A stretch of 64,000 nt of DNA from an uncultured Gammaproteobacteria bacterium (GCA_963779865.1 CAVZZX010000003.1:2252274-2316273); one strand, 5' to 3'. Counted from the first letter of the stretch, positions 25,303 through 30,544 are shown. Program-made: numbers and translations. Notes: a model not told the origin generated them from the sequence alone.

Positions 25303-28300
25303 CGACCGCACTCGGCAGACGCTTCACGACGGCGCCTTGCGTGCGCTTGATCCACACACGCAGCATCGAGAGCAATTGCATCACGTCAATCGGTTTGGCC
25401 ATGTAGTCCGAGGCCCCGGCCTCGATGCACTTCTCCCGGTCCCCCTTCATCGCCTTGGCGGTGAGGGCGATGATCGGCAGGCGGGCGAAATGCTCGCGCC
25501 CGCGAATCATCCGCATCGTGTCGTAGCCGTCGAGCTCGGGCATCATGACGTCCATGATGACAAGATCGACGTCAGGTTCGGTTTCGAGGATTTGGACGCC
25601 ATCGCGGCCGGTCTCGGCGTGCCGCACGCGGATGTCGTACTCCTCGAGTACGCTTGCCAGTGAGAAGATGTTGCGGATGTCGTCATCCACGACCAGCACC
25701 GTCTTATCCGCGAGCGCCAAATCGCAGCTACGCGCGCGCTGCAGCAGGGCCCGAGAGCTCGCGGGCAGTCGCTCGAGCGGCAGATGCAGGACGAGCGACA
25801 CCTCGTTGATCAGGCGCTCGACGTGGTAGCGATCGCCGAGCAGGACCGTGTCGGCCCATTCGCCGAGCGTGGCGAGCAGCTCCGCGTCGCTCTCCTCCCC
25901 GGCACAGACCACCACCGGCAGCTCGGCGCCGGCCGGCAGCGCCCGCACCTGCGTGAGCAGGGCCTCGCCGCCGACCTCGAGCAAGGCGAGATCGAGCACC
26001 ATGCAGTCGAAGCGCTCCGCGCGCAGGCACGCCAGCGCCTCGGCCGCCGAGCCGACCCGGCGGCCCTGGATCGCCTCGCTGCCGAGCATGTGCTCCATCT
26101 CCACCGCTTCCGCCTCGGCGACACCGACCCACAGCACCCGGCGCATTTCGCGCCCCAGCAGCGAGCGCAGGTCGGCGAGCAGGGCGGCCCGCGCCGAGGG
26201 GTCCCCCGAGTTGACGCTGCAGCCCACCGCGCCGCGGCGCAGGCAACGCTGCCGCGGCAGCTCCGGCGCCAACACCTGCACCGGGATGTGGCGCGTCTCC
26301 GCATCGTGTTTGAGCAGGTCCAGCACGCCCCAGCCGTCGGTGTCCGGCAGGGCCACGTTCAGGACGATGGCATCGGGTTTGGTCTTGCGCGCCAGCGCGA
26401 GAGCGGCATCCCCGCGCAGCGCAATCAGCCCCTTGAAACCGGCCTCGCGGGCCTGCGCCAACAGGCTGGCCGCCTCGCGGGTGTCCGGTTCCACGACCAG
26501 CAGCACGAGGTCCCCTTCCTCGATATGGTCCCGATCGTCGCCGACCTCGTTCTGCAGCAGCAGGGAGAGATAGGACTCGCTGGCGGTCGGCGGCGCCTCC
26601 AGCGGGCCGGCGTCGTCCCGGTCGCGTTCGCCCTCGAGCGCCTCCAACGGCTGCCGAAGCGGCGGGCGGCTGCCCGGGTCGCTGACCGGCAGGTACAGCG
26701 TGAAGATGCTGCCGCGGCCCGGTTCGCTGTTCACCGCGATCTCCCCGCCCAGCCGGCGGGCAATCTCCCGGCTGATGGACAGCCCCAGCCCCGTGCCGCC
26801 GTACTTGCGGCTGGTGGTGCCGTCCGCCTGGCGAAAGGCTTCGAAGATGATCTTCTGTTTCTCCGGCGGGATGCCGATGCCGGTGTCGCTCACCGAGAAG
26901 GCGATCACCGCGTCGGCGGTATTGAGCGTGTCGAGCCGCGGATTCCAGCCCTTCTCCACGCGCTCGATGCGGAAGGCGACCTGTCCGCGCTCGGTGAACT
27001 TGAAAGCGTTGGACAGCAGGTTCTTGAAGATCTGCTGCAGGCGCTTGGCATCGGTGTGGATCGTCTGTGGCACGTCGGGGGCGACCTCGATGGGGAAGTC
27101 CAGCCCCTTGTCTCCGGCGAGCTGGCGGAAGGTGCGCTCCACATACTCGCGCATGTCCGCCAGGCGCTCCTTGCTGATGTCCAGCGTAACGGTCCCCGAC
27201 TCGATCTTCGACAGGTCGAAGATGTCGTTGATCAGCGACAAGAGGTCGGAGCCGGACGCATAGATCGTCCGCGCGAATTCGACCTGCCTCTCGGTGAGGG
27301 TGCCGTCGGAGTTTTCCGAGAGCAGCTTGGCCAGGATGAGCAGGCTGTTGAGCGGGGTCCGCAACTCGTGCGACATGTTCGCCAGGAATTGGGACTTGTA
27401 CTTCGAGGCCGCCGAGAGCTGCGCCTTCTGCTCGGAGAGCAGCCGTGCCTTCTCTTCGAGCTCGCTGTTGGTGGTCTGCAGCTCTTCCTGCTGCGCCTTG
27501 AGCAGCTCCTCGGACTTGCGCAGGTTTTCCGCCTGCTGCTCGAGCCGGTCATTGGTCTTGCGCAGCTCTTCCTGCTGGATCTGCAGCTCGGCGGTCAGCG
27601 TCTGGGACTGGGTGAGCAGGTCCTCGGTGCGCATGTTCGCCTCGATCGTGTTGAGCACGATGCCGATACTCTCCATCAGCTGGTCGAGGAAGGACTGATG
27701 CGTCTCGCTGAAGCGATCGAAGGAGGCCAGCTCGATCACCGCCTTGACCTCGCCCTCGAACAGGACCGGCAGCACGATGATGCTCAGGGGCTGCGCCTCG
27801 CCCAACGCCGAGCCCACCGAGAGGTAGTCCGGCGGGATCTTGGTGAGCAGGAAGGGCTTTTTCTCGTGGGCGCATTGCCCGACCAGGCCTTCGCCGAGCG
27901 CGAAGCGGCGCGGCGAATCGCTGCGGCCGCAATAGGCGTAGCTCGCGAGCAGATCGAGCACCGGGCCGTCGGTGCCGCGGCGCATGAGGTAGAAGACCCC
28001 GAGCTGCGCATCGACCAGCGGCGCGATCTCCGAGAGGATCAGGCGTGACACCGTGAGCAGATCGCGCTGACCCTGCAGCATCTTGGTGAGCTTGGCGATA
28101 TTCGTCTTGAGCCAGTCCTGCTCCTTGTTCTTCAGGGTGGTGTCCTTGAGATTGCCGATCATCTCGTTGATGTTGTCCTTGAGCGCGGCGACCTCGCCCG
28201 AAGCGGCAACGGTGATCGAGCGGGTCAGGTCACCCTTGGTGACCGCCGTGGCGACCTCGGCGATGGCGCGCACCTGCGTGGTCAGGTTGTCAGCGAGCTG

Positions 28301-30544
28301 GTTGACGTTGTCGGTGAGGTCGCGCCACAGGCCGGCGGCGCCCGGGACCTTCGCCTGGCCGCCGAGCTCACCCTCGGTGCCCACCTCGCGCGCCACGCGC
28401 GTGACCTCCGAGGCGAAGGCGTTGAGCTGATCCACCATGGTGTTGATGGTGTTCTTCAGCTCCAGGATCTCGCCCTTGACGTCCACCGTGATCTTCTTGG
28501 ACAGGTCGCCGTTGGCCACCGCCGTGGTCACCTCGGCGATGTTGCGCACCTGCCCGGTGAGGTTGGCGCCCATCGAGTTCACGTTGTCGGTCAGGTCCTT
28601 CCAGGTCCCGGCCACGCCCTTCACGTCGGCCTGCCCGCCGAGCTTGCCCTCGGTGCCCACCTCGCGCGCCACGCGCGTGACCTCCGAGGCGAAGGAGTTG
28701 AGCTGGTCCACCATGGTGTTGATGGTGTTCTTCAGCTCCAGGATCTCGCCCTGCGCATCGACCGTGATCTTCTTGGACAGGTCGCCGTTGGCCACCGCCG
28801 TGGTCACCTCGGCGATGTTGCGCACCTGCCCGGTGAGGTTGGCGCCCATCGAGTTCACGTTGTCGGTCAGGTCCTTCCAGGTGCCGGCCACGCCCTTCAC
28901 GTCGGCCTGCCCGCCGAGCTTGCCCTCGGTGCCCACCTCGCGCGCCACGCGCGTGACCTCCGAGGCGAAGGAGTTGAGCTGATCCACCATGGTGTTGATG
29001 GTGTTCTTCAGGTCCAGGATCTCGCCCTTGACGTCCACCGTGATCTTCTTGGACAGGTCGCCGTTGGCCACCGCCGTGGTCACCTCGGCGATGTTGCGCA
29101 CCTGCCCGGTGAGGTTGGCGCCCATCGAGTTCACGTTGTCGGTCAGGTCCTTCCAGGTGCCGGCCACGCCCTTCACGTCGGCCTGCCCGCCGAGCTTGCC
29201 CTCGGTGCCCACCTCGCGCGCCACGCGCGTGACCTCCGAGGCGAAGGAGTTGAGCTGGTCCACCATGGTGTTGATGGTGTTCTTCAGCTCCAGGATCTCG
29301 CCCTTGACGTCCACCGTGATCTTCTTGGACAGGTCGCCGTTGGCCACCGCCGTGGTCACCTCGGCGATGTTGCGCACCTGCCCGGTGAGGTTGGCGCCCA
29401 TCGAGTTCACGTTGTCGGTCAGGTCCTTCCAGGTGCCGGCCACGCCCTTCACGTCGGCCTGCCCGCCGAGCTTGCCCTCGGTGCCCACCTCGCGCGCCAC
29501 GCGCGTGACCTCCGAGGCGAAGGAGTTGAGCTGGTCCACCATGGTGTTGATGGTGTTCTTCAGCTCCAGGATCTCGCCCTGCGCATCGACCGTGATCTTC
29601 TTGGACAGATCGCCGTTGGCCACCGCCGTGGTCACCTCGGCGATGTTGCGCACCTGCCCGGTGAGGTTGGCGCCCATCGAGTTCACGTTGTCGGTCAGGT
29701 CCTTCCAGGTGCCGGCCACGCCCTTTACCCGGGCCTGCCCGCCGAGCTTGCCCTCGGTGCCCACCTCGCGCGCCACGCGCGTGACCTCCGAGGCGAAGGA
29801 GTTGAGCTGATCCACCATGGTGTTGATGGTGTTCTTCAGGTCCAGGATCTCGCCCTTGACGTCCACCGTGATCTTCTTGGACAGATCGCCGTTGGCCACC
29901 GCCGTGGTCACCTCGGCGATGTTGCGCACCTGGCCGGTGAGGTTGGCCGCCATCGAGTTCACGTTGTCGGTCAGGTCCTTCCAGGTCCCGGCCACGCCCT
30001 TCACCTCGGCCTGCCCGCCGAGCTTGCCCTCGGTGCCCACCTCGCGCGCCACGCGCGTGACCTCCGAGGCGAAGGAGCTGAGTTGGTCCACCATGGTGTT
30101 CACGGTGCGCCCGATACGGCGGAATTCACCGCGCAGCGGCCGGCCGTCGATCTCCAGGTGCATGGACTGCGACAGGTCGCCCTTGGCCACGGCACCGATG
30201 ACGCGCGCCACCTCGGTGGTGGGCTGGACCATGTCGCCGATCAGGCTGTTCACCGACTCGATGTTCTTGGCCCACGCGCCCGACACCGCGCCCATCCGCG
30301 CGCGCTCGGAGATCTGGCCGGCCTTGCCGACCACCGAACTGACCCGCGCCAGTTCGGCACTCATGAGTTCGTTCAGCTCGATGGCTTCGTTGAAGGCCTC
30401 GGCGATCTCCGCAGCCATGCCGTCGCCGGACATCTCGAGCCGGGCGCGGAAGTTGCCGCGGCGGAACTGTCTCAGGGCCTTGAGGAGCTGCCGGGCGTCC
30501 TCGGCGTGAACCCCTTGTTCACGGGCGGCTTTGGCGGCGTGCAT
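25295..30544 (-). CDS. poly-HAMP hybrid histidine kinase: about 9 tandem HAMP units, GAF, coiled coil, HisKA, HATPase and at least 3 receiver domains; no transmembrane segment
   Basis: A 92-aa unit ([89 protein letters not shown]) is repeated about nine times. Downstream are HELRTPLNS (H-box), [18 protein letters not shown] (G2 box) and the receiver domain with DVMMPELDG. The ATG at 30544 was chosen as start. The six-frame ORF extends to 30634. Confidence 0.8.
28100..30110. repeat. tandem 276-bp direct repeats of near-identical nucleotide sequence encoding the HAMP units
   Basis: The string gatccaccatggtgttgatggtgttcttcag recurs at about 28431, 28707, 28983, 29259, 29535 and 29811, with a variant at 30081. 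The antisense ORFs 28437.., 28989.. and 29817.. encode identical peptides. Confidence 0.85.

Follow-up and report, generated by a model that had tools for sequence, protein, structure and literature searches.

The kinase gene and its repeat array

The window analysed here, a stretch of 64,000 nucleotides (nt) (CAVZZX010000003.1:2252274-2316273, with positions counted from its first letter), carries on its minus strand a gene for a soluble hybrid histidine kinase, the N-terminal part of which is encoded by a tandem array of 276-bp units, each specifying a pair of HAMP domains (a di-HAMP module). The six central units of this array are nearly identical in DNA sequence, and comparison with the closest orthologues supports recent duplication and homogenization of these units in the lineage of the window.

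A single array was returned by Tandem Repeats Finder, spanning 28226-30107 (period 276, 6.8 copies, 94% matches, 0% indels, score 3281), and in terms of the reading frame there are seven in-register units, u7 to u1 (28142-30073, minus strand; Table 1). The array is confirmed as real and as far above chance. The initial annotation had reported a 30-mer recurring at exact 276-bp spacing, and this is borne out, with CTTGCCCTCGGTGCCCACCTCGCGCGCCAC being present in six exact copies, at 28643, 28919, 29195, 29471, 29747 and 30023, always 276 bp apart, together with an additional copy at 93% identity at 28367. The span that it gave for near-identical units, 28100-30110, agrees with the extent of u7-u1; the near-identical set, however, is limited to the six units u1-u6 (28418-30073), which are 95–99% identical to each other (2–14 differences per 276 nt), whereas the seventh unit, u7, is 74–75% identical to these. 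Blocks of 276 nt taken in register beyond the array have only 27–39% identity. Nor does a unit correspond to one HAMP domain, as had been proposed, each in fact encoding a HAMP pair of 92 amino acids (aa), in which the first half is a non-canonical and the second half a canonical HAMP.

The array is without indels and the kinase reading frame is unbroken across the 1.9 kb of units. Exact repeats between units are at most 292 bp long, followed by 221, 176 and 173 bp, which is more than enough for homologous recombination to act on. All six central units can be distinguished.

The enclosing open reading frame (ORF) extends over 25295-30634 on the minus strand, with the ATG at 30544 being the likely start; it is preceded by GGGAAG, and the N-termini of the orthologous proteins begin at an equivalent, collinear position. 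Pfam models match the protein, in order, as HAMP and HAMP_2 (8 stretches each), GAF_2, HisKA, HATPase_c and Response_reg (three times). The total of 17 HAMP domains is made up of a first HAMP and two each from the divergent first module u0, the six near-identical modules u1-u6, and u7. A membrane-spanning segment, sought by simple hydropathy only, was not found, the maximum Kyte-Doolittle(19) value (1.67) lying inside the GAF domain. On a by-eye reading of the three receiver (REC) domains, REC1 (26261-26509) has an Asn at the expected position of the phospho-acceptor Asp (IVLNVALP), REC2 (25895-26140) is missing the acidic pair and REC3 (25349-25705) is canonical; REC1 and REC2 thus look degenerate, with REC3 alone appearing to be canonical. 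Short direct DNA repeats (families D5 and D6) are also present within the coiled-coil region, at 27447-27577. ORFs that run across the array on the opposite, plus strand (28083-30509) are regarded as shadow ORFs of a high-GC gene.

Table 1. Positions of the kinase gene, its modules and domains, and adjacent genes in the window
Feature	Position	Strand	Description
Kinase gene	25295..30544	-	Soluble hybrid histidine kinase, 1749 aa; 17 HAMPs, GAF, coiled coil, HisKA, HATPase_c, three REC
First canonical HAMP (aa 17-60)	30365..30496	-	Gap-free alignment to AskA construct 9TRK
Module u0	30074..30364	-	Divergent first di-HAMP module, 97 aa, connector with 5-aa insertion; positional orthologue of the L081/L082 first modules (82-83% nt)
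Module u1	29798..30073	-	276 bp, 92 aa; ortholog-like states E23 and A42 in 5' half
Module u2	29522..29797	-	Linked 5-site block (unit positions 210-217, aa A72/Q73) in common with u5; u2+u5 pair, 90% bootstrap
Module u3	29246..29521	-	2 nt differences from u4, 3 from u6
Module u4	28970..29245	-	3' half like u1, 5' half like u3
Module u5	28694..28969	-	3' half like u2, 5' half like u3
Module u6	28418..28693	-	Last near-identical module; S92A, likewise in last central module of L082
Module u7	28142..28417	-	Terminal di-HAMP module; orthologous to last modules of L081 and L082 (86-87% nt, 95-96% aa)
GAF domain	27653..28066	-	Pfam GAF_2, E 6.6e-20
Coiled-coil linker, GAF to DHp	27398..27625	-	Heptad-rich EDLLTQSQ...AASKY
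Kinase core	26684..27397	-	HisKA 27194-27397; HATPase_c 26684-27052 (Pfam)
Three receiver domains	25349..26509	-	Pfam Response_reg, 3 stretches
Partner gene	23350..25302	-	REC-PAS-HisKA-HATPase_c-REC, 650 aa (Pfam); directly downstream of kinase
Exo_endo_phos family gene	30731..31504	-	Upstream neighbour; synteny marker with L081

Orthologues and module number

Orthologues were sought by protein search with the non-repeat C-terminal 948 aa of the kinase as query. The two closest relatives, P0122 and P0121, are each 68% identical over this region; P0122 (1630 aa, locus L081) is encoded on the finished chromosome CP054689 of Ectothiorhodospiraceae bacterium 2226, and P0121 (1547 aa, locus L082) derives from a subsurface metagenome. 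L081 was found via the protein search followed by the encoding contigs, a scan of a genome collection with the C-terminal half having missed this closest orthologue; the scan gave at least 80 loci, all about 50% identical. The ranking from a search with the whole protein is led by 15-module proteins of about 2385 aa, which shows the breadth of the family but is useless for orthology. Neither the kinase nor the proteins encoded by the upstream neighbour and the partner gene had a match in exact-protein look-ups, and no conspecific sequence was found by these look-ups, by the protein search (best 68%) or by a metagenome scan with the least conserved region of the kinase (aa 1291-1611; best match 42% identical).

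Synteny of L081 with the window extends over genes for APH, peptidase M3, Exo_endo_phos and the partner kinase, and that of L082 includes the partner kinase and, farther upstream, an Exo_endo_phos gene. The array region of the window (28142-30073) was compared with 10001-14893 of L081 and 10001-14644 of L082. The initial annotation had suggested that the repeat number may vary between strains; between the orthologues it does differ, there being 6 central modules in the window, 5 in L081 and 4 in L082. The modules at the two edges of the array, by contrast, are orthologous by position in all three genomes, with 82–83% identity for the first modules and 86–89% for the last (Table 1).

Recent homogenization and protein constraint

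High DNA identity between the units is, taken alone, weak evidence that they are recent, because the module protein is nearly invariant and its codons are rich in G/C at the third position. The protein is almost unchanged between phyla, with few substitutions relative to the Myxococcus AskA construct, and third codon positions are 93–100% G/C, the G/C content at these positions (GC3) being 0.97–1.00 in the window modules versus 0.93 in the flanks. Modules are 88–96% identical in nt sequence within L081 and within L082, and 87–95% identical between genomes, the modules of the window having 88–95% identity to those of the orthologues. It could thus be proposed that no recent recombination has taken place, with purifying selection and a bias for G/C-ending codons acting on old, independent modules; such a proposal would fit the near-invariance of the protein, the GC3 values and the observation that the orthologue arrays reach their high identity at a within-array synonymous divergence (pS) of only 0.21.

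The synonymous sites of the window array, however, argue against this. Within-array pS is 0.064 in the window (range 0.015–0.117), three times below the values within L081 (0.214) and L082 (0.206), and below that of the window modules compared with L081/L082 modules (0.21–0.26); the synonymous divergence among the window modules amounts to 2–13% of the divergence of the gene from its nearest orthologue. The window modules also have in common states that are absent from orthologous modules, at site 60 (synonymous GGG, six of six modules), site 125 (A42G, five of six) and site 141 (synonymous, five of six); private shared sites of this kind number 8 in L082 and 1 in L081. Neighbour-joining places the six central modules of the window together in a single clade (82% bootstrap); the terminal modules, by contrast, cluster across the three genomes according to their position. 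The central modules are without positional orthology to L081, though u0 and u7 have it. Old and stable arrays elsewhere in the family, furthermore, look different, as described below. Constraint and codon bias without recombination are thus a very unlikely explanation, and the results support recent duplication and homogenization of the central modules in this lineage.

Mosaic structure of the central modules

The variants that distinguish the central modules are distributed as a mosaic. In the 3' halves of the units the pattern is ABCABC, with u1 equal to u4, u2 equal to u5 and u3 closely resembling u6, and pairs of units three apart differ least (6, 5 and 3 nt, adjacent pairs averaging about 8). 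Both observations would be expected from a single recent burst, e.g. one duplication of an 828-bp block of three modules with no conversion before or since. The 5' halves, however, do not share the pattern, being uniform in u3-u6 and different in u1 and u2, and the derived G42 is present in five modules, u2 included. In the four-gamete test, 17 pairs of sites fail (Rm = 3), i.e. at least three recombination events are required. Since there are 17 incompatible pairs and Rm is 3, one duplication without additional conversion or crossover is insufficient, and a single burst is accordingly considered highly improbable; the mosaic can be accounted for by several events of unequal exchange or conversion whose breakpoints fall within units.

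The claim of the initial annotation that the units reflect very recent tandem amplification or ongoing gene conversion can thus be retained in part. Amplification or conversion is backed by the pS values, the private variants, the 82% clade and the Rm of 3; 'very recent', on the other hand, needs qualifying, in that the identity is largely due to protein constraint and GC3.

Homogeneity of the array within the family

The array was compared with others of its family in a survey covering 68 arrays from 82 related loci and 182 homologous proteins. The window array is the most homogeneous of the 68, with a median nt identity of 0.96 and 67% of module pairs at or above 95%; those of L081 and L082 follow, with medians of 0.90–0.91, and the remaining arrays have medians of 0.64–0.86. 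In none of the 182 proteins does the median identity between modules reach 0.95. Exactly 15 modules are present in 109 of the best 120 whole-protein matches. In 12-module arrays of Alphaproteobacteria there is orthology module by module between genera, 11–12 of the 12 best matches lying on the diagonal, and stable arrays elsewhere in the family have median nt identities of 73–83%. In view of this diagonal orthology, most of the family has old, frozen arrays, with turnover being apparent in the small clade to which the window belongs.

In L079 (Steroidobacter gossypii), alternate modules among modules 2–11 are 90–94% identical and neighbouring ones about 80%, a two-module periodicity that suggests amplification of pairs of di-HAMP modules.

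At least 16 of the 80 listed loci have a contig end inside the array (L021, L026, L028, L029, L035, L037, L039, L041-L043, L057, L060, L066, L070, L072 and L080), and many database homologues are labelled 'partial'. Draft and metagenome assemblies are thus commonly interrupted at such arrays; given these breaks and partial entries, very homogeneous arrays are probably under-sampled in surveys. The same observations are relevant to whether the array of the window itself is an artefact of assembly, i.e. has been collapsed, expanded or artificially homogenized, e.g. when short reads that map to several units are used for polishing. At 292 and 221 bp, the longest exact repeats are beyond a typical short-read length, and the nearby peptidase M3 gene has a frameshift that may stem from an erroneous 1-nt indel. 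By contrast, all six units are distinct, and their variants occur in linked blocks (u2/u5 and u1/u4), unlike the outcome of random error or blanket homogenization; the period and frame are perfect over 1.9 kb, and the finished chromosome CP054689 has an array of the same kind, with 5 central modules. An assembly artefact is therefore regarded as unlikely, if somewhat less so than either of the two alternatives considered above.

Relationship to known systems

Residues 7–294 of the window kinase (288 aa) align without gaps to residues 41–328 of 9TRK (E 2.3e-124), the 6-HAMP crystal construct of Myxococcus xanthus AskA; 9TRJ is a further structure of Ask arrays (Coles et al., Protein Sci 2026, PMC13446029). 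The same work defines a class of soluble poly-HAMP kinases, in which di-HAMP modules are located upstream of GAF-DHp-CA-REC and which occurs in many bacterial phyla, fungi and Amoebozoa, and explicitly sets poly-HAMP arrays apart from multi-HAMP proteins (PMC13446029). The window gene is a clear member of the kinase-associated poly-HAMP arrays of the AskA/AskB type: its di-HAMP modules have a fixed period and are without linkers (seven of 92 aa in register and a first one of 97 aa), and there is no upstream input domain, the first HAMP beginning from about aa 17. Its HAMP units are homologous to group C/D HAMPs by the alignment to 9TRK. In kinase-type arrays D1-type HAMPs consistently occupy the first position (PMC13446029), and the first HAMP of the window array is probably likewise of D1 type, as judged from its position and collinearity rather than from the clustering of those authors. 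By analogy with the solved homologue, the array may be expected to form a dimeric four-helix-bundle rod with a zig-zag alternation of helix rotation; the di-HAMP pair has been termed a 'self-contained toggle', in which helix rotation is reversed twice (PMC13446029).

The likeness to AskA and AskB (MXAN_0712 and MXAN_6735) is extensive, including solubility without an upstream sensor domain, the order of a first HAMP, repeated 92-aa di-HAMP modules, GAF-DHp-CA and three REC domains, and the presence of near-identical modules inside one array. A second hybrid kinase gene directly downstream of the window kinase recalls askB-askC, the likeness being one of gene arrangement (PMC7643160). AskB differs in having 31 HAMPs (PMC13446029), compared with 17 in the window kinase, and the hosts differ, AskA and AskB being from a myxobacterium and the window from a proteobacterium, as inferred from its nearest orthologue, that of an Ectothiorhodospiraceae bacterium. 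The M. xanthus homologues work in development and in the response to ambruticin/glycerol, with a partner kinase (Marcos-Torres et al., Nat Commun 2020, PMC7643160); the window kinase is not known to have a developmental or ambruticin context of this kind.

The window kinase additionally scores above the whole-protein cut-offs of Pfam for HTH_6 (32.8 bits against 28.3) and SpoIIID (32.4 bits against 27). Neither gives an individually significant stretch and both were rejected as domains, their scores looking like summed weak matches to the repeated HAMP helices. Comparable 'partial HTH' matches in AskA and AskB have been taken as possible DNA-binding motifs (PMC7643160).

Fungal group III hybrid histidine kinases (Nik1/Os-1/TcsC/Bos1), compared here by description, are similar in being cytoplasmic, in having 92-aa HAMP pairs and an odd HAMP total, and in the location of the array upstream of HisKA, HATPase and REC. 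They differ in that their arrays are shorter (about 9 HAMPs) and work in a eukaryotic phosphorelay (the HOG pathway), compared with the bacterial host here. Divergence between repeats is also greater in the fungal proteins, and the REC domain is single. CaNik1p, for instance, has four 92-aa HAMP pairs and one single HAMP (PMC3848655), and the fungal group III kinases have been grouped with the kinase-type arrays (PMC13446029). A more distant resemblance is to the Aer2-type receptors (Pseudomonas/Vibrio Aer2; 3LNR, 3VOL), which have concatenated canonical and non-canonical HAMPs with alternating conformations, and the window kinase has a weak sequence match to the Aer2 structure 3VOL (E 1.8e-4); the Aer2 proteins, however, have few and diverse HAMPs, a PAS interruption, a chemoreceptor output and no near-identical module repeats.

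With respect to its evolution, the array resembles bacterial intragenic tandem repeats that undergo concerted evolution, in its higher similarity within than between genomes, spared edge units, differences in copy number and mosaic variants. Concerted evolution of this kind is classically described for surface proteins, where selection is diversifying or phase-variable. The window array differs from these in encoding a cytoplasmic signalling rod, with extreme purifying selection on the unit.

Nearly identical modules in poly-HAMP arrays are known and have been put down to intragenic amplification, and very homogeneous arrays are common (PMC13446029). Thus, with the same arrangement being evident from that family and from CaNik1p (PMC3848655), near-identical repeats have already been described at the protein level. 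What the comparison adds is that the window array is more homogeneous than any of the DNA and protein arrays sampled here (about 250), that its module number is different from that of its two nearest orthologues, and that data from synonymous sites tell recombinational homogenization from protein conservation.

Proposed origin of the array and its implications

The explanation that we consider probable, with good confidence, is that strong protein constraint has been combined with recent, multi-event duplication and homogenization of the central modules in this lineage. Purifying selection on the module protein, together with G/C at third positions (about 95–100%), would alone hold the module DNA near 88–95% identity. 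On this background the central modules would have been duplicated and homogenized by in-register homologous recombination, i.e. unequal sister-strand exchange and gene conversion, in several events, some of which would have had breakpoints inside units. The outcome would be the 95–99% identity that is observed and one or two central modules more than in the closest orthologues, with the first and last modules, at the array edges, escaping homogenization.

In terms of function, the poly-HAMP rod may pass on axial helix rotation to GAF-DHp-CA, the signal originating either at the N-terminus or in the way the rod itself is packed. Gain or loss of one 276-bp unit would then alter the length of the rod and not its polarity, functional tolerance of such changes being suggested by the published structures and by length variation in the family. 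Whole-unit indels may be tolerated, and the period may be two HAMPs and not one, because such changes are in frame and because each HAMP pair would restore the sign of the rotation. We infer both the mechanism of recombination and the functional neutrality of module number, whereas the anatomy of the repeats, membership of the family, the difference in copy number, the lineage-specific homogenization and the mosaicism are shown by the data given above.

Several points weigh against this explanation. The modules of L081 do not cluster by genome (7% bootstrap), and homogenization is therefore not uniform across the clade. The comparison is anchored by two orthologues only, at 68% identity, and the unit count is that of the assembly, with any ongoing turnover being presumed rather than observed directly. 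Tolerance of module number would follow from the literature and from family-wide length variation, i.e. by analogy. Finally, neutral, unbiased concerted evolution does not predict that between-species pS in the central modules should be below that in single-copy parts of the gene. It is 0.21–0.30 when central modules are compared unit with unit and 0.12–0.19 for consensus with consensus, compared with 0.33–0.40 for the first module, 0.36–0.47 for the last module and 0.47–0.50 for the C-terminal half; the stable 12-module arrays elsewhere have no such contrast between central and last modules.

The low central values may be due to biased conversion, to exchange between lineages or to chance, there being about 69 synonymous sites per unit. 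A check for GC-biased conversion revealed an excess of GC3 over the flanks in the window modules and no excess in L081 or L082. Biased conversion that purges new synonymous mutations would account for the low between-species pS of the central modules, and it can be speculated that in this clade, unlike most of the family with its frozen arrays of 12 or 15 modules, the array is an actively length-variable, recombination-driven tuning knob of a cytoplasmic sensor kinase, in which such conversion operates; this proposal is at present considered unlikely, and the combination of constraint with recent duplication and homogenization is preferred.

From a practical perspective, short-read assemblies can break or collapse at a 1.7-kb block of 95–99% identical units, and the module count should therefore be verified before structural or functional use. 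If module number is truly polymorphic, the array would provide a natural series for effects of poly-HAMP length on signalling. Otherwise, with near-identical modules already published for the family, the array matters little beyond annotation and quality control of assemblies.

Neighbouring genes and other features of the window

The ATG of the partner gene overlaps the stop codon of the kinase gene at 25295-25302 (ATGTCTGA), and this overlap suggests that the two genes are in one operon and are translationally coupled. The partner gene also follows the kinase gene in L081 and L082, with 58–61% identity, and among the matches listed, 22 of 79 more distant loci have a hybrid kinase with an N-terminal receiver close downstream on the same strand. 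A scan for promoters and terminators over 22.8–31.0 kb found nothing that exceeded shuffled sequences.

A CRISPR array is located about 300 bp past the 3' end of the partner kinase gene, at about 21030-23049, with at least 28 copies of a 36-nt repeat (GTTATCCGCGGCATAACGCCGCGGCCTCATTGAAGC) and spacers of about 37 nt; L081 is without anything like it at this position. Upstream of the CRISPR array, at 6863-20528, are cas genes, which encode a WYL/WCX protein, Cas_GSU0053, a Cas3-like protein and a Cas4-Cas1 fusion, and which we take to be type I-U/I-G-like.

On the other side of the kinase gene, the peptidase M3 (oligopeptidase A-like) gene at 31567-33607 (minus strand) is split between two frames, with the break at about 32364-32372. 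The L081 orthologue aligns over its aa 1–412 in one frame and its aa 415–680 in another, and 'gcgcgcgccgcgcaagcgcggcggc' has 7 nt where 6 are expected; the split marks the gene as a pseudogene or else reflects an assembly error of a 1-nt indel.

Farther along the window, a longer ORF at 47239-50733, which has no Pfam match and is probably spurious, lies antisense over a gene at 46948-49785 (plus strand) that encodes a REC-PAS-GGDEF-EAL protein (cyclic-di-GMP turnover).

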